Positions 858 through 7,896 of a DNA stretch of 8,659 nt are shown here, piece after piece (the stretch's first letter is position 1; every line of letters begins with the position of its first letter). The stretch covers positions 15,159 through 23,817 of the forward strand of contig CAYRPF010000050.1 in NCBI GenBank assembly GCA_964426185.1, written 5' to 3'. The translations under genes were made by a program, and so were the position numbers. The notes below the pieces were generated by a model that worked only from the letters and a program-made list of their open reading frames with translations, did no database searches and was not told where the DNA came from. Source of the stretch: an uncultured archaeon. Its GTDB lineage: Archaea > Asgardarchaeota > Lokiarchaeia > Sigyniarchaeales > Promethearchaeaceae.

Positions 858-2138
858 TTAACTCTGAATTATTTGCGATAAAACTAAACTTAGCTCGCCC
901 AAATTATATGGCTTCTTTAGCACGCCGCTATATCCATATTTTTTATAATTGCTGAATATGGGATCATCAATAAAACCGCTTGAAACTATCGCTTTTATCT
1001 GATTATCAAGGTTTTTCAAGATTAAGGAACCAAATTCACCCGCACCGCCGATTTCAGAAAAATCTAAAATAACAGCATTGAATGGATTTTCTTTTTCTTT
1101 ATGATTTCGATATTTTTGTAAAGCATCTATGAAATTTCTTGCCAATTCTACTTGATAGCCTAATCGAGTAATCATTTTTCTTGCTGTATCTAAAATTGAT
1201 TCATCATCATCCATCAACAAAACTTTTCCTTGTCCCAAGACTAAAGTGTGGGGTTTTTTCGATAAATTTTGTGAAGTTTCTTCTTCTAGCGCATTGTTAC
1301 TCATGTTTGAGATATTTTTTAATTCACTCGCAGATGACGCGGTTCCAATAGATTTAGAAATATTGAGTAATTGAGAGATTAAATTACGAGCTTTAAGACA
1401 AGCTTGTTCTGCTTCCTCTAAACTCTCATATGTATCAGTATTTTCAGCAACATCCAGTTTCGATAAATTAATATTGCCCAAAATTGTTGATAATACATTG
1501 TTCAAAGTATGTCCTAAAGTTCTCCCCACACTACTAAAAACACCTATTTTTTGTTTTAATTGAATATTTTTTTGTTCTAATTGATTCTCGTTAGATATGG
1601 TAAATGCTCCCGTTTTTGCTCCTGTTTTGGGCAATTTTGGTTTTAATTCATGGATTTGTATTGAATCTCCGTTTTTTAATCGATGTGAGTTATTTTTCTG
1701 AGTTTTTAACCATTCATGGTCAACTTCAAACAGAATTTGTAGAAATTGCTCTTCAACGATTCCATCATCTTGTTGAATTTCATTAATTTTTGTTAAATTA
1801 CTCTCAAAATAGTATTCAAGCATCCGATTCATTACCGCAATAGGGATTTCATCCGGAGATTCTTTATCTGCAATTACAACAAATAAATCTTTATTTGCGT
1901 TTTTTTCAAGTAAGATCTTGTAGTGAGTAAATTCTATATAGTGAATAGGATCATCATTAAAGAAGACCTCGCTGGAAGAACTAATTGCACTGAAAAAGCC
2001 TGAAAAAAACAGTTCATTGATATTCCATATTTCATTTGCATTTTCGGGAGAAAACCAACTAAAAAATGGTACTCCAGATGAGCGGATCCATAAAAATCCG
2101 TATAAATATCTAGCAATATGAGTATTTAATAGATTCAA
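858..2138 (-). CDS. Signal-transduction protein: N-terminal longin-like domain + HisKA (DHp) + C-terminal receiver domain; no HATPase_c domain
   Basis: 426 aa. TTG start, with an in-frame TAA two codons upstream and a GTGAT RBS-like sequence 7 nt upstream. aa ~195-263 GVFSSVGRTLGHTLNNVLSTILGNINLS...LEEAEQACLKARNLISQLLNISK matches the hybrid-kinase H-box pattern LAGGIAHDFNNILT.ILGN..L...QLL.FS (H210). aa ~303-424 is a receiver domain: VLLMDDD, VILD359, IVSSG, KP (K409). aa ~11-140 resembles Asgard longin-type domains (WIRSSGVPFFS...LFFSGFFSAISS...LFVVIAD). The REC and HisKA calls are firm; the longin call is less certain. Confidence 0.85.
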   Translation of the reverse strand: MNLLNTHIARYLYGFLWIRSSGVPFFSWFSPENANEIWNINELFFSGFFSAISSSSEVFFNDDPIHYIEFTHYKILLEKNANKDLFVVIADKESPDEIPIAVMNRMLEYYFESNLTKINEIQQDDGIVEEQFLQILFEVDHEWLKTQKNNSHRLKNGDSIQIHELKPKLPKTGAKTGAFTISNENQLEQKNIQLKQKIGVFSSVGRTLGHTLNNVLSTILGNINLSKLDVAENTDTYESLEEAEQACLKARNLISQLLNISKSIGTASSASELKNISNMSNNALEEETSQNLSKKPHTLVLGQGKVLLMDDDESILDTARKMITRLGYQVELARNFIDALQKYRNHKEKENPFNAVILDFSEIGGAGEFGSLILKNLDNQIKAIVSSGFIDDPIFSNYKKYGYSGVLKKPYNLGELSLVLSQIIQS

Positions 2139-2257: not shown

Positions 2258-2617
2258 TTATAATCCTAAATCATCAAGTGAACGGATAACATCTTCAAAA
2301 TACATCAATCCTGGACCTCCCGACATTAAAACCACAACCTCACACGCTTCTATAATTTCTTGTCGGGTAGCTCCTAAATCCACCGCATTTTTAACATGCC
2401 AAACAATACAGCGTTCACATTGAGCTTTCACAGAGATTGCAATACCGATAATTTCTTTAAATTTTGCGCTCAAAGCTCCGCTTTTTTTGCTCAAACGCAT
2501 GAATTTTCCAAAGCTTTGCATCCATTCGGGATCAATTTGACCTAAATTTTTCATATGATCGTTTGTTTTTCCCAATATTTCTTTGGTTAAGTTAGAGTTA
2601 GAAGTATTTTCACTCAT
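2258..2617 (-). CDS. Carboxymuconolactone decarboxylase / AhpD-like protein with redox CxxC motif
   Basis: 119 aa. GALSAKFKEIIGIAISVKAQCERCIVWHVKNAVDLGATRQEIIEA...LMSGGP is the CMD/AhpD core pattern E-x11-CxxC-xxx-H. Confidence 0.92.
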   Translation of the reverse strand: MSENTSNSNLTKEILGKTNDHMKNLGQIDPEWMQSFGKFMRLSKKSGALSAKFKEIIGIAISVKAQCERCIVWHVKNAVDLGATRQEIIEACEVVVLMSGGPGLMYFEDVIRSLDDLGL

Positions 2618-2725: not shown

Positions 2726-2751
2726 CTTTGTGTACATTAATGTACATAAAG
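2726..2751. promoter_or_regulatory. Palindromic putative transcription-factor operator between the divergent CMD and decarboxylase genes
   Basis: CTTTG-TGTACATTAATGTACA-TAAAG: a perfect 16-bp palindrome (2731-2746) that extends to 26 bp with one mismatched pair. A second dyad, GTTCT-TATG-AGAAC (2752-2765), follows immediately. Confidence 0.6.
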
Positions 2752-2818: not shown

Positions 2819-3952
2819 ATGGAAGCTGCTACCTTTTTTAATCTAATTCGGGAAAAAAACATAAATTTTTTTACGGGCGTCCCTGATTCTACTTTACAAG
2901 CGGCTATTAATTTTCTTAACACAGATCTTGCCCGCGATTCCAACGTGATCCATATCCGTGCGGTAAATGAATGTGAATCGATTGCATTATCAGCAGGATA
3001 TTTTTTAGGAACAAACCAAATTGGGATGGTATATATGCAGAATTCTGGATTAGGCAAAGCTGTGAATCCTCTTACTTCTTTGGTCGATCCTCAAGTTTTT
3101 TCCATTCCAATTCTTCTTCTTATCGGTTGGCGTGGGGAACCCGGTAAGCCAGATGATCCCCAACATATGAAAATGGGACAAGTTATGCTTCCCATATTAA
3201 ATGATTTGGAAATTCCTTATTCAATCCTTGAAAATGATGAAAAAGATCTAGAAATTAAATTGAACACCGCTTTAAGATCTATGAAAGAACGTTCGGCGCC
3301 CTATGCTCTGATATGTACCAAAGAATTCTTTGACCCTTATCCAGATAATTCTGAAAATACCTATCACAGCGATTTAACATGTGAACTTGCAATTGATCAT
3401 ATCTTAAACACTTTTCCTTCAGATACAGCGATAATTTCTACCACGGGAAGAATTTCGCGAGCGTTGTATCATCTTCGTGCTAAAAGAAATGAAAAACATC
3501 GAGAATTTTATACTTTAGGTTCCATGGGCTGTGCTTCGGCTATTGGTTTAGGTTTATCAAAATCATTGGAAGCAGTAGGGAAACGCATTTTGGTAATTGA
3601 TGGAGATGGAGCGGCATTGATGCAATTAGGTCATTTTTCCTCTATCGGAAATCAAGCACCTCAAAATTTCTATCATATTCTCATCGATAACAATTCCTAT
3701 TGCTCCACTGGATGTCAACCTTCTATTTCAGAATCAGTGGATTTCGCCGCGGTGGCAAAAGCTTGTGGATATCGTTATGCACTTACCGTTGATTTGGAGA
3801 AATTCTTGAAATCTGAACTACCATGCTTTTTGGAAACGGTAGGGCCTTCACTTTTGGTAATTAAGGTCAAACGGGGTAGAAAAAAATACCTTCACCGCCT
3901 GCAATCGCCTCTAGAATACAAGAAAAACTTTCAAATCCATTTAAATCTATAG
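2819..3952 (+). CDS. aepY: TPP-dependent phosphonopyruvate decarboxylase-like enzyme (Ppd/AepY clade; possibly acting as a fused ComDE-type sulfopyruvate decarboxylase)
   Basis: 377 aa fused PYR+PP domains. Ppd-type motifs FFTGVPDS, NE (E51), VYMQNSGLG.AVNPL.SL, IP.LLLIGWRGEPG..D.PQH, STTG..SR, GSMG.AS.IGLG, and TPP motif DGDGAALM...DN. The family is secure; the substrate is not. Confidence 0.85.
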   Translation: MEAATFFNLIREKNINFFTGVPDSTLQAAINFLNTDLARDSNVIHIRAVNECESIALSAGYFLGTNQIGMVYMQNSGLGKAVNPLTSLVDPQVFSIPILLLIGWRGEPGKPDDPQHMKMGQVMLPILNDLEIPYSILENDEKDLEIKLNTALRSMKERSAPYALICTKEFFDPYPDNSENTYHSDLTCELAIDHILNTFPSDTAIISTTGRISRALYHLRAKRNEKHREFYTLGSMGCASAIGLGLSKSLEAVGKRILVIDGDGAALMQLGHFSSIGNQAPQNFYHILIDNNSYCSTGCQPSISESVDFAAVAKACGYRYALTVDLEKFLKSELPCFLETVGPSLLVIKVKRGRKKYLHRLQSPLEYKKNFQIHLNL

Positions 3953-3960
3953 GCGTTTGA

Positions 3961-3968
3961 TATATAAG
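3961..3968 (+). promoter_or_regulatory. Possible TATA box for a leaderless transcript of the marker-16 gene
   Basis: TATATAAG lies at -30 to -23 relative to ATG 3991, the spacing expected for leaderless archaeal mRNA. There is no obvious RBS in the 38-bp gap. Confidence 0.4.
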
Positions 3969-3990
3969 AAACTAACACAAAATTAATACT

Positions 3991-5253
3991 ATGAAAACGC
4001 GCACCTTGGACGAAATCCAGCGGAAAATTGAAGGTAAACAAGCTACCATCTTAACAGCCCAAGAAATTTTAGACGGTATGGCAGATGGAAAAACATATGA
4101 ATTTGAAGATGTTGATGTTGTAACAACGGCCACAAAAGGAATTATGTCTGGCACTTCTCTTATTCTTTCCTTTCAAATCGCTGAACCGCGCGTTTTCTCC
4201 AAAGTTAAGTCAATCATGTTGAACGGAATCGAAGCATATCCTGGTCCAGCGCCTAATGAATTCTTGGGAATTGTTGATTTGGTTATGTATGGCACGCAAA
4301 AGAGTCATAATAATCCAAACTATGGGGGTGGTCATCTCTTTAGGGATTTGCTTGAGCGTAAACCAATTCATGTATGTGGAAAATCCGTTGAGGGAGATAA
4401 TTTTGATTTGACAATTACTTTGGATGACATCCCATTTGCTCAAATGTTGGGAACTCGACATGCTTTTCGGAATTACAATGCATTCATTAACCCTAGTAAT
4501 AATTTGGTTGATTCTATTTTTTCGATTACTGGATTGGCTCCAAATAATCAAGAAATTTCTTTTTGTGGCTGCGGTGGTTTAAATCCTCTTGAAAACGACC
4601 CTGAACTGAAAACATTACATCTTGGAACACCCATTTCTGTAAATGGTGCAATTGGACATATCATCAATACTGGAACGCGTTCTTCTCCAAATCGGCCTAA
4701 TTTAATGACTTTGGCTCCCTTAAAATCAATGAAACCAGAATTCTTGGGAGGATTTAAAACTTCTAATGGACCAGAAGTTATTTGTACCATTGGTGTCCCA
4801 ATTCCAGTTCTATCCGAACAAATTTTGAAGCAGATTCTGAGAACCGAGTCAAAAATACCCTTGAATATTGTTGATATTGTGGGCAGGGAGAAAATTGGCG
4901 AGACAAATTATGCGGAAGCGTGGAAAGGGGATTGGAATATTACCTGGTCAAAGGAACAATGTTATTCCTGTGATTTTCAAAACGGATGCCCTGTTGAAGT
5001 TAAATGTCCCACAAATTGCTTTTCCGTAATTTTCGGCATTGATAAACGCTACTGTTTCAACTGTGGAGCTTGTTTGCGTATTTGTCCCCATTCTGCATTT
5101 AAAGGTGATTTAGGCATGATACCTTATCAGAATCGCAAAATACCGATAACTTTACGCCAGTCGGATCGAATTGGGGCCATTCGAATGATGAACACTTTAA
5201 AACGAGATATATTAAAAGGTGACTTTTCTTTGGTTCAAAAATACGATTTTTAA
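3991..5253 (+). CDS. Methanogenesis marker 16 metalloprotein (ComF / coenzyme M synthase-like; DUF39/HcyBio domain + 2x[4Fe-4S] ferredoxin domain)
   Basis: 420 aa. DUF39-family motifs RTLDEI..KI....A.ILTA.E, DVDVVTTAT.GIMSGT, LNG.EAYPGP.PNE.LG.VDL..YGT, YGGGHLFRDL, GCG.LNPLENDP, GTRSS..RPNL, GGF.TS.GPE, IPITLRQSDR. Internal ferredoxin C324-x2-C-x5-C-x5-CP and C355-x2-C-x2-C-x3-CP. No CBS domains and no TGTFG.MCSSG motif, which separates it from the homocysteine-forming aspartate-semialdehyde sulfurtransferase paralog. Confidence 0.88.
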   Translation: MKTRTLDEIQRKIEGKQATILTAQEILDGMADGKTYEFEDVDVVTTATKGIMSGTSLILSFQIAEPRVFSKVKSIMLNGIEAYPGPAPNEFLGIVDLVMYGTQKSHNNPNYGGGHLFRDLLERKPIHVCGKSVEGDNFDLTITLDDIPFAQMLGTRHAFRNYNAFINPSNNLVDSIFSITGLAPNNQEISFCGCGGLNPLENDPELKTLHLGTPISVNGAIGHIINTGTRSSPNRPNLMTLAPLKSMKPEFLGGFKTSNGPEVICTIGVPIPVLSEQILKQILRTESKIPLNIVDIVGREKIGETNYAEAWKGDWNITWSKEQCYSCDFQNGCPVEVKCPTNCFSVIFGIDKRYCFNCGACLRICPHSAFKGDLGMIPYQNRKIPITLRQSDRIGAIRMMNTLKRDILKGDFSLVQKYDF

Positions 5254-5370: not shown

Positions 5371-5390
5371 TACAAAAATGAGTGATATTA

Positions 5391-6833
5391 ATGATGGAAA
5401 CAACTCGATTAACAAAGGGCTACTCACGTGTTTCAAAAATACGCACTATCGCATACGGACTTGGACCAATGGCTGATCAAATGAGTCATCAAATGTTTTC
5501 TTTTCTGGTATTTACCTTCTACTATGCTGTGGTTCATATAAATATCAAGCATTTGATGTGGGGATTTATTATTTTTGCCGTGTGGGATAGCATAAATGAT
5601 CCTTTGCTTGGACCGATTTCTGATCGAACCCAAAGTAAATTTGGACGGCGAGGATTTTGGATCTTAATCAGTATTATTCCGTTTGGATTGAGTAATGTCA
5701 TCCTATTTACTGTTGGGGTGCACTGGGCTTATTGGTTAAAATTCGCATATATGTTGATAATTATTATGTTATATGACACGATATATACGGTCTTTTCCTG
5801 TAATCAGCTCGCTCTGTTTTCGGATATGTTTGAGACAGAACAGGAGCGTGGGCTGGCAAATATGTGGAAATCGGTTCTTACGATTGTCGGCGTCATAATA
5901 GGTTTTGTTCTTCCCACAATTTTTATTAAACCGATGACACCGCAAACCGGTGAAATTGAAGAATTGATATCAATAACCGATAGCTATATCATTACTGGCC
6001 TAGTGGTGGGCATTCTTACTATTTTGGCTGGATTTGCCTTTTTCAAATGGGGAATGCAAGAAAATATTCACCATCAACTGGAGAAATCGGAAGATCAACC
6101 TGGATTTTTCAATATGATACGAGACGTGATAAAAAACAAAGATTTCATAATTTTCACGATAGCGAACTTAGTAAAATGGTTCGTATTCAAACTACTTACA
6201 ACTATTGTTCCATTATATGCAATATTTGTCTTAGGTATCCAAGAAGGTGGTATTTTAGTATCAGCCCTTTTACTGGTGGCTTTTTTAGCTGCAACTGCGG
6301 CATTTCCGTTAATGAAAACTATCGGTTTGAAAATTGGTTGGAGAAACGGCTTCATTCTTTCTTCTGCATTCTGGATATTGGCTTTGATTCCCTTCTGGTT
6401 TTTGGAAAATCAGCCTTATTGGGCAATTTTCTGTATGGTTTTTGTGGGCGTCGGGTTATCGGGTGCAATTTATTTTGTTGAGCCTATAATCGGTAATATT
6501 GTGGATAAAGATGAATTAAAAACAGGTATTCGGAGAACAGGGACATTTTATGGAATAAATGGCTTAATTAATCGTTATTCTACCATTATGGTATTTGTTG
6601 TTTTGGCAATAGTGCTTTCTGGATACGGTTGGGAAGATTTCTTAGTATCTCCTTCTTTGGATCAGTATCAGAATATGGTTTTAGGATTAAAATTGTTGAT
6701 GACCCCTATTTCAATCGGGGCTTTAGCCTTAGTAATTATATTTTTGCTTCTTTATCGGTTACATGGCGAAAAATTGGTGAAGATTCAAAATGAGTTGAAA
6801 AAAAGGCGCGAATTACTTCTAATCAACCAATAA
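5391..6833 (+). CDS. MFS transporter, glycoside-pentoside-hexuronide (GPH)/MelB-like cation symporter family (MFS_2)
   Basis: About 12 hydrophobic segments. Signature WDSINDPLLGPISDRTQSKFGRR and C-terminal IVDKDELKTGIRRTGTFYG. The ORF track starts at GTG 5382, but that GTG lies inside an RBS-like GAGTGA (5380-5385), so ATG 5391 or 5394 is the likelier start. Confidence 0.92.
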   Translation: MMETTRLTKGYSRVSKIRTIAYGLGPMADQMSHQMFSFLVFTFYYAVVHINIKHLMWGFIIFAVWDSINDPLLGPISDRTQSKFGRRGFWILISIIPFGLSNVILFTVGVHWAYWLKFAYMLIIIMLYDTIYTVFSCNQLALFSDMFETEQERGLANMWKSVLTIVGVIIGFVLPTIFIKPMTPQTGEIEELISITDSYIITGLVVGILTILAGFAFFKWGMQENIHHQLEKSEDQPGFFNMIRDVIKNKDFIIFTIANLVKWFVFKLLTTIVPLYAIFVLGIQEGGILVSALLLVAFLAATAAFPLMKTIGLKIGWRNGFILSSAFWILALIPFWFLENQPYWAIFCMVFVGVGLSGAIYFVEPIIGNIVDKDELKTGIRRTGTFYGINGLINRYSTIMVFVVLAIVLSGYGWEDFLVSPSLDQYQNMVLGLKLLMTPISIGALALVIIFLLLYRLHGEKLVKIQNELKKRRELLLINQ

Positions 6834-6879: not shown

Positions 6880-7896
6880 ATGTCTTTCTCTCAAATTTCC
6901 TTAGAAACAATTTCTGTTCAAAGCGCAATAGAGCAGATGACCGAACTTTCTCCTGAATTAACCCCCCAGTTAGATCAAATGTTAGCTTCTACGCATCGAA
7001 ATGATGTACCGAATTTTTGGGATGCTGATATTTCTAATCATTATTATATTCCAGTTCCTGATGGTGAAATCCGAGTTATTCACTATCGACCTGAATTTTC
7101 TGCTTCGATTAGACCTTTAGTCTTCGTTCCCGGCTGGGGAGTTTCACCTGCTGGATTTCAAGATTTATTCGAAGTTATCTACGAGAAAGTCGAATTTTAC
7201 TATATTGAAACCCGTGAAAAACGAAGCAGTCGAATGCATCGGTGGAAAAGTAATTTTACCATGAGTCAAAAAGCTCTGGATGTGCAAATTGCTATCCTAA
7301 AATTAGGATTGGATAGCGACGATTTTGTTTTGATGGGTCCGTGTTGGGGCGCTGCCGTTATCATGCAAGGATTAATGGACAGATGCATACAAGCACCTAC
7401 GATTATAACTATGGATCCTATGCATACTCTGTGGTTTTCCAAATTTGTTTTGAAATGGATTGCACCCATTTTACCTTCATGGCTTTTTTATTTACTTCGG
7501 CCAATTATTCAATGGTTAAAATTACGAAACATGCATGAACCGGTGCAAAAACAGCGTGCTAAAGATTTTATTGCCAGTGCAGAATTGTGGAAATGGAAAA
7601 AAGCAGCATGTCAAGTCCGAAATTTTGAATTATTTGAAAATTTACACCGTATTCCTCAAGAAGTTATTGTAGTTAACGGAACCAATGATGCCATCCATAA
7701 TCAAGAGGATTATCCTAAAATTGCTATTGGACTTCCTAATTCGCGTTTTCTCTTTTTGAAAACTGGGGAGGAAAATCGTGAACGCCTAATGGGTTTAGTG
7801 GCTCTTCTCTACACACAAATAGGAGCCGAGACTAAAATTCCCCCCATTTTTGAACCATTCGAGAAAAAAATCCCTCGAGAAGTCGAGAAGTTGTAA
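6880..7896 (+). CDS. Atypical alpha/beta-hydrolase-fold protein with Cys at the nucleophile elbow
   Basis: 338 aa. PLVFVPGWG oxyanion strand, FVLMGPCWGAA elbow (C155), VIVVNGTND acid motif (D270), then helix + LPNSRFLFL strand. No His at the usual post-beta8 position. Confidence 0.8.
   Translation: MSFSQISLETISVQSAIEQMTELSPELTPQLDQMLASTHRNDVPNFWDADISNHYYIPVPDGEIRVIHYRPEFSASIRPLVFVPGWGVSPAGFQDLFEVIYEKVEFYYIETREKRSSRMHRWKSNFTMSQKALDVQIAILKLGLDSDDFVLMGPCWGAAVIMQGLMDRCIQAPTIITMDPMHTLWFSKFVLKWIAPILPSWLFYLLRPIIQWLKLRNMHEPVQKQRAKDFIASAELWKWKKAACQVRNFELFENLHRIPQEVIVVNGTNDAIHNQEDYPKIAIGLPNSRFLFLKTGEENRERLMGLVALLYTQIGAETKIPPIFEPFEKKIPREVEKL

Follow-up and report, generated by a model that had tools for sequence, protein, structure and literature searches.

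Two adjacent genes in a lokiarchaeal genome may complete the synthesis of coenzyme M (CoM) in a cell that makes no methane. They lie in a stretch of 8,659 nucleotides, here called the window, from an uncultured member of the Lokiarchaeia, of Promethearchaeales type (contig CAYRPF010000050.1, positions 15,159 to 23,817), and they encode a thiamine diphosphate (ThDP)-dependent 2-oxoacid decarboxylase and methanogenesis marker 16 (MMP16, or ComF). We think it reasonably probable that an enzyme recruited from the phosphonopyruvate decarboxylases (Ppd) here replaces the sulfopyruvate decarboxylase ComDE, and that CoM is made from scavenged sulfonate in an archaeon with neither a methyl-coenzyme M reductase (MCR) nor an alkyl-coenzyme M reductase (ACR). 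This reading of the sequence fits the regulatory, motif and distribution evidence. We favor it because the type of regulator found beside the pair in relatives also heads canonical comDE genes and an SsuABC-type importer, because a 16-bp box is common to the promoters of the pair and the importer, and because marker 16 is above its model cut-off in 117 of the 154 genomes of the order, all of them without mcrA and about 69 of them with canonical comDE.

The gene pair and its two proteins

Both open reading frames (ORFs) are intact and co-oriented, 38 bp apart, and profile scores confirm the families that a first-pass annotation of this DNA had assigned by eye. The features of the locus are as follows.

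2819..3952, plus strand: 2-oxoacid decarboxylase (377 aa) that uses ThDP and has its two domains fused, from a distinct marker-16-linked clade within the Ppd/ComDE family; putative sulfopyruvate decarboxylase (TIGR03297, 383 bits).
3991..5253, plus strand: methanogenesis marker 16 metalloprotein (MMP16/ComF, COG1900d; 420 aa) that ends in a ferredoxin domain; putative CoM synthase, turning an aldehyde into a thiol (TIGR03287, 479 bits).
2731..2746, no strand: putative operator TGTACA-N4-TGTACA, 72 bp 5' of the decarboxylase ATG; predicted site of an AF_0136-type regulator, from motif and recurrence.

The adjacency of the two genes is beyond chance. The order decarboxylase then marker 16 recurs on all five contigs retrieved for the decarboxylases most similar to this one (54-58% identity), four of which (L064-66, L099) also have a divergent AF_0136-type gene beside the pair, while the next homologues down (48-49% identity) adjoin pepM, the PEP mutase gene, or an iron-dependent alcohol dehydrogenase (Fe-ADH). 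The two ORFs and the operator are conserved at 54-76% identity, and the named homologues of the pair come from Promethearchaeota, Lokiarchaeota and Helarchaeota. A full-library profile search gave one cluster at 688 bits and then fell to 446, so the decarboxylase clade is a narrow one. Thus the synteny proposed as a check in the first-pass annotation holds among the closest homologues and is not general across Asgard archaea: the pair is absent from both congeners of the host, the closed one having its AhpD and MFS genes about 400 bp apart with nothing between them at the syntenic site, and also from the cultured-type genomes G008 and G013. Recent horizontal import was considered and set aside, as third-position GC content is ordinary for both genes (60th and 76th percentile) and marker 16 falls among its own family.

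With the Ppd equivalog model (TIGR03297, cut-off 312.5) the decarboxylase, which has fused PYR and PP domains, scores 383.3 bits, and it falls below the models for ComD (TIGR03845, 78.1, cut-off 148) and ComE (TIGR03846, 121.5, cut-off 221.5). It carries the Ppd-type motifs GVPDS and WRGEPG..DDPQH and does not match the ComD-type (S/T)xPC..REE..HRG, as the first-pass annotation had read. Its predicted structure (pLDDT 88) is matched by RhiE and RhiF of Bacillus RhiEF (PDB 9IZ4) at a template modeling (TM) score of 0.88 each. In sequence, fold and both motifs it thus resembles Bacteroides fragilis Ppd, RhiEF (9IZ3/9IZ4) and the Ppds of lokiarchaeal pepM clusters, but those clusters differ in having pepM, Fe-ADH, NTP transferase or 2-aminoethylphosphonate (AEP) transaminase nearby: 44 of 48 other Ppd loci have phosphonate neighbors and none has marker 16. 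Clade members score 372-383 bits with the Ppd model, against 413-490 for the pepM-cluster copies of the order. A chimera of a Ppd N-half and a ComE C-half was also considered and is unsupported, since each half is closer to pepM-type Ppds (50%/42% identity) than to ComDE (26%/33%).

What sets the clade apart from Ppd is the loop that follows the ThDP-binding asparagines, which we infer to set substrate specificity. It reads H-E/D-S in 45 of 48 pepM-type enzymes; here it is Y294-C295-S296 with C299, and Y-C-S-T-G-C is found in all nine clade members, as in Methanotrichaceae ComE. Position 295 is E or D in 47 of 48 pepM-type Ppds, C in nine of nine clade members, and G or C in nine of nine ComDEs. 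The window's YCSTGCQP conforms to the ComE-type Y-G/C-STG pattern, and a search with it retrieved Methanotrichaceae comE genes with the identical loop, one of them adjoining marker 16 and an SsuA cassette. Ppd takes sulfopyruvate as a slow substrate while ComDE refuses phosphonopyruvate (reviewed in PMC11350588), so recruitment of a Ppd to the ComDE role would be chemically easy; the window enzyme may act like ComDE, yet it is no member of the ComD/ComE family.

In a quick tree with SH-aLRT (approximate likelihood-ratio) support only, nine marker-16-linked decarboxylases form one branch (99%), whose sister consists of two pepM-less orphans, one of them in G003. That genome has marker 16, lacks comDE and is the sole other pepM-less genome with an above-cut-off Ppd away from a contig edge. 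The best tree nests the clade among lokiarchaeal Ppds of the same family (support 94), and a topology joining it to ComDE is not rejected (approximately unbiased test, p-AU 0.20). Sister-clade loci (L068:7241-8398, L113, L218) read VPG(T/S) and YASTG and adjoin a small zinc-ribbon-like gene, with neither pepM nor marker 16 nearby. Separately, G013, a genome without marker 16, encodes a divergent split ComD/E-like decarboxylase below all cut-offs (L084:6729-7867).

The affinity with Ppd might be taken to favor the other alternative of the first-pass annotation, a route that starts from phosphonopyruvate, passes through phosphonoacetaldehyde and ends in 2-mercaptoethylphosphonate, the C-P counterpart of CoM; here it would be fed by imported phosphonates. 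The enzyme does score above the Ppd cut-off and both its halves are nearer pepM-linked Ppds, but we consider this route very unlikely. The acidic loop residue of Ppd is lost, the linked importer is of SsuA/TauA type and not PhnD type, and the 92%-complete host genome has no pepM, phosphonopyruvate-hydrolase-family gene or phosphonatase (phnX). In the host's family pepM and marker 16 never occur together (none of the six genomes with marker 16 has pepM, and none of the five with pepM has marker 16). Order-wide, 35 of 154 genomes have pepM, 26 of them among the 117 with marker 16, and the 30 top-scoring Ppd loci examined in genomes with both sit in phosphonate-type clusters with no marker-16 neighbor.

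The second protein is, by family, a true MMP16/ComF. It scores 479.3 bits with TIGR03287 (cut-off 363.95) over model positions 1-391, has a PF01837 (COG1900) domain followed by the ferredoxin domain with Fe-S motifs at 324-365, is 43% identical to Methanotrichaceae MMP16, and groups with the MMP16s of the host's own family in a tree in which the positions of one wrong-strand ORF and a long-branch L-ASST (the sulfurtransferase acting on L-aspartate semialdehyde) are ignored. L-ASST (COG1900a, MA1821) has the COG1900 domain and aldehyde-to-thiol chemistry in common with it but not the fused ferredoxin domain. The genome encodes a separate L-ASST (C75, beside aspartokinase; 33.5% identical to the window protein), therefore marker 16 is not the homocysteine enzyme, a possibility that the first-pass annotation had raised against its own proposal. 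MMP16 is the CoM synthase of Methanosarcina acetivorans (PMC12068725), and by analogy with that orthologue the window protein would convert sulfoacetaldehyde to CoM.

Regulation and distribution across the order

The operator has the 16-bp consensus TGWACA-N4-TGTWCA, and its own sequence at 2731-2746, TGTACA-N4-TGTACA, has no other exact copy in the 3.26-Mb host genome (about 0.02 expected). Four of five relatives (L064, L065, L066, L099) have this box 5' of the decarboxylase with at most one mismatch. Regulator promoters, mostly between the regulator and SsuA genes, carry the exact consensus in G001, G011, G012, G013 and G151, and a one-mismatch box in the host itself (C55 of G000) and in G006. 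Sixteen related genomes hold 15 exact matches, five of them at the regulator promoter itself; a looser box is no more frequent genome-wide than a control (about one per genome) and is informative by position alone. A one-mismatch box at a class-III aminotransferase on C26 was discounted because it overlaps the start codon.

The box is the predicted site of the ribbon-helix-helix-like AF_0136-type regulator encoded on C55, which shares 54% identity with the regulator that adjoins the pair in L064. That regulator gene lies within a complete ABC transporter cassette, for which the top family matches, every one under its cut-off, are SsuA/TauA and SaoP/TauC/NtrB:

G000 C55:12880-16394 (L090): SsuA/TauA-type ABC importer with AF_0136-type regulator and 16-bp box; also in L185, L186, L187 and L189.

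The same regulator and cassette occur in G001, G005, G006, G008, G009, G011-G013, G028-G031 and G086 (binding protein), most of them without marker 16, and retention of importer, regulator and box in such genomes makes the transporter a candidate CoM or sulfonate importer. In G008, G012 and G013 the cassette lies immediately 5' of the gene orthologous to the MFS gene of the window, which is the site of the pair here. In G023, G024, G025 and G045 canonical comD-comE is headed by a regulator from the same family, though a more distant one. Together these arrangements suggest that one regulator family ties the pair, canonical comDE and a sulfonate-type importer into a regulon. When M. acetivorans is starved of CoM, ssuA/ssuC, comDE and hdrABC are induced together (PMC12068725).

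Divergent from an AF_0136-type regulator, relatives in family f3 have another gene, for a pyridoxal phosphate (PLP) enzyme of about 390 aa (TFKD lysine, SSGNT, QTVSGG) with a cysteate-synthase/DUF6002-like fold (TM 0.78):

L232:5622-6794, L222:2965-4158 and L223:6852-8036, with 16 more family-f3 genomes: divergent PLP enzyme.

In G045 and G023 it faces regulator-comD-comE, and 18 of the 19 genomes that have it also have comDE. It is absent from the host genome, and elsewhere it is a candidate third route to cysteate.

In the order-wide set, whose 154 genomes include kin and so are not independent, mcrA was found in none, by a search that does detect the divergent ACRs of Helarchaeales; the host is no exception. 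These results agree with the first-pass view of the host as an Asgard archaeon and probable non-methanogen, and they dispose of the worry that it might be an ordinary MCR-encoding methanogen or alkanotroph. Genes of comD/comE type, split or fused, occur in about 88 of the 154 genomes, 69 of them with intact marker 16 (one such pair was checked and is above both cut-offs). In the phylum marker 16 is found in 118 of 332 genomes. Two Asgard genomes of other families, neither with an mcrA match, have fuller clusters: comD-comE-MMP16-thrC-like-comA-comB in G252 (L157), and cysteate synthase (cs)-comDE-MMP16 in G353 (L158).

The known locus closest to the pair is the type-2 CoM locus of M. acetivorans (cs MA3297, comDE MA3298, comF MA3299; PMC12068725), in which a fused ThDP decarboxylase likewise stands directly 5' of marker 16; the first-pass annotation had noted that comDE and marker 16 are neighbors in Methanosarcina. 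Both genomes also have a linked SsuABC-type importer and Hdr genes. The host differs in its Ppd-like decarboxylase, in its AF_0136-type regulator and box, and in lacking cysteate synthase, comABC, MCR/ACR and MtrA. The Helarchaeales cs-comDE-hdrCBA-MMP16 operon (L145, L146, L149) likewise clusters an Asgard marker 16 with a fused decarboxylase, but its hosts encode ACRs (two of these genomes have three to four McrA-like copies) and, with a decarboxylase of ComDE type, the entire de novo pathway.

In most other Lokiarchaeia (L079, L081-L083, L160-L163, L150, L069, L070, L073, L219) genes for a VOC protein, an acetolactate synthase (ALS)-like ThDP enzyme and an SDR come after marker 16, often with a class-III aminotransferase or M28 hydrolase; no member passes a specific model. 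Searches by structure and by family assigned no substrate to the ALS-like enzyme or the aminotransferase, nor to the binding protein of the importer. Each of these families includes members that act on sulfoacetaldehyde. Such clusters make it conceivable that marker 16 runs in reverse, breaking down sulfonates or CoM and passing sulfoacetaldehyde to an Xsc-like enzyme, or that the host pair is a remnant being lost, and we regard both as improbable. The ALS-like enzyme does follow marker 16 in most of family f3 (297 bits with the Xsc model, cut-off 676), but the host has no orthologue of it (best 30% identity) and therefore two aldehyde-producing enzymes would have no sink. The absences from both congeners, G008 and G013, would suit a remnant; against this, neither the ORFs nor the operator is damaged, and all three are conserved.

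Several observations in the order and the window touch on other systems. Clusters of pepM, ppd and Fe-ADH, NTP-transferase or AEP-transaminase genes occur in about a fifth of the order (L034-L063, L095, L096), and phosphonate surface decoration is therefore probably common in Lokiarchaeia. In two genomes comA-comB adjoins a PAPS-reductase-like gene within polysaccharide-type clusters (L093:3716-5837, L094:5032-7107); the product there may be a sulfonated glycan and not CoM. In the window, the GPH-type MFS transporter (5382-6833) and the alpha/beta hydrolase (6880-7896) downstream of the pair are conserved in the family with or without it, and a 50-52% identical paralogue lies within the marker-16 operon of G002/G003. 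The AhpD/CMD-family gene (2258-2617, minus strand) has its intergenic region in common with the pair and occurs in G006 without it. Transporter and AhpD were dropped as parts of the system, being in the same position in relatives that lack the pair. The protein at 858-2138 (minus strand), conserved in G006, G008 and G013, has what we read as an N-terminal roadblock/longin-like segment, a weak HisKA match and a receiver domain, with no ATPase domain match.

Proposed route, the main alternative and significance

We propose the following route. A sediment sulfonate (sulfolactate or cysteate) would be taken up and converted to sulfopyruvate by housekeeping enzymes of broad specificity (a gene dedicated to this was not found); the Ppd-like enzyme, in place of ComDE, would decarboxylate sulfopyruvate to sulfoacetaldehyde; and marker 16 would exchange the aldehyde for a thiol with sulfide and ferredoxin-borne electrons, as its Methanosarcina orthologue does, giving CoM. 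The pair would thus form an operon that is under regulation and covers the two closing steps of CoM synthesis; this operon the AF_0136-type regulator, judging from motif and synteny, would co-control with the SsuABC-type importer. No other comD/comE is present in the host genome, therefore the Ppd-like enzyme is the only candidate for the ComDE step. The product would most likely serve as a thiol for heterodisulfide reductases or as a redox buffer rather than as a methyl carrier to methane. The host has five full HdrB paralogues, two above cut-off, and CoM is an antioxidant in Methanosarcina (PMC12713407).

A number of findings weigh against this route, among them the missing sulfonate source. 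The first-pass annotation found no PEP mutase, ComABC or cysteate synthase in the window, and the whole-genome search extends this: besides pepM, the 92%-complete genome lacks comA and cysteate synthase, nor does it have a ComC dedicated to the pathway, and no sulfopyruvate source was found. The archaeal type 1 and type 2 CoM pathways include a sulfonate-forming step (ComA/B/C or cysteate synthase) and belong to hosts with MCR/ACR; neither was found here. The host's Ldh_2 protein is nearest to malate dehydrogenases and adjoins malic enzyme. Order-wide, cysteate synthase occurs in none of the 154 genomes and comA in two, and 48 genomes have marker 16 without detected comDE. Nor is methyl-CoM use evident, because MtrA is absent and the MtaA-like methyltransferase of a corrinoid/MtaA-like pair lacks the H-x-C zinc motif. 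The SsuA-type protein is 26% identical to its Methanotrichaceae counterpart and below the TIGR01728 cut-off, and the AF_0136-type family also adjoins unrelated genes in other genomes. The proteins themselves add to this list. The decarboxylase clade has lost R188, E215 and E218, which most Ppds keep (R188 and E215 are also in all ComEs), therefore the substrate may be neither sulfopyruvate nor phosphonopyruvate. Conserved blocks of lokiarchaeal MMP16 (ICSIA-type) differ from those of methanogens and Helarchaeales (INSWA-type), and although the window protein keeps C193/C195, GPCPNE reads GPAPNE in the pair clade, with alanine at the presumed equivalent of Cys95; the mapping of Cys95/Cys202 is our own, from an alignment that does not include MA3299. 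Cys200/202 of MA3299 are dispensable in vivo (PMC12068725).

It is also possible, though we doubt it, that the pair is a general module that turns 2-oxoacids into thiols and starts from an internal metabolite to yield some other low-molecular-weight thiol, for instance 3-mercaptopropionate from oxaloacetate via malonate semialdehyde, or 7-mercaptoheptanoate from 2-oxosuberate (the coenzyme B (CoB) arm). A COG1900 enzyme of Methanocaldococcus jannaschii makes 3-mercaptopropionate, for which our literature search returned no confirmation. The first-pass annotation missed this third option, as it did the prevalence of marker 16 in an MCR-less order. We take it as the main rival because no sulfonate source was found, and such a module would need none, and because the MMP16 blocks are altered. 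The loss of residues common to Ppd and ComE would also fit, as would the marker-16 clusters with class-III aminotransferase, SDR, VOC protein and ALS-like enzyme, none sulfonate-assignable by score, and it is suspected that COG1900 enzymes take part in additional thiol syntheses, that of CoB for one (PMC12068725). Yet the loop change leads specifically to ComE-type sequence, the same regulator family heads comD-comE of the above-cut-off type and a sulfonate-type importer, and canonical comDE is present in most of the order's genomes that have marker 16. The proposal that a Ppd-clade enzyme replaces ComDE, one of the two alternatives of the first-pass annotation, thus gains regulatory, motif and distribution support and still lacks a sulfopyruvate source in the genome.

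Asgard archaea have many heterodisulfide reductases, which metabolic models take to turn over CoM-CoB (PMC9723677) without a check for the genes that make CoM, and the survey in the genetic study of ComF was restricted to MCR/ACR genomes (PMC12068725). Our literature search, which covered few subscription journals, turned up no publication that treats genes for CoM synthesis in Asgard archaea without MCR, describes a Ppd-like enzyme in place of ComDE, or shows that MCR-less Asgards can make CoM or CoB. The locus and its order-wide context supply named genes and a regulon, and the CoM question is testable with existing M. acetivorans mutants. If the proposal is true, the decarboxylase is a natural phosphonate-to-sulfonate switch in a ThDP enzyme. 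More tentatively, we speculate that most Lokiarchaeia, without MCR or ACR, make CoM or a new CoM-like thiol for their many heterodisulfide reductases by several aldehyde routes, the Ppd-like decarboxylase and the divergent cysteate-synthase-like enzyme among them, and that lineages losing marker 16 import the thiol from partners through the co-regulated SsuABC-type transporter. Such a make-or-import pattern would predict a thiol requirement in cultured, slow-growing Lokiarchaeia. With marker 16 in three quarters of an order that has no mcrA, this thiol, or a close relative of it, may serve a purpose other than methane.

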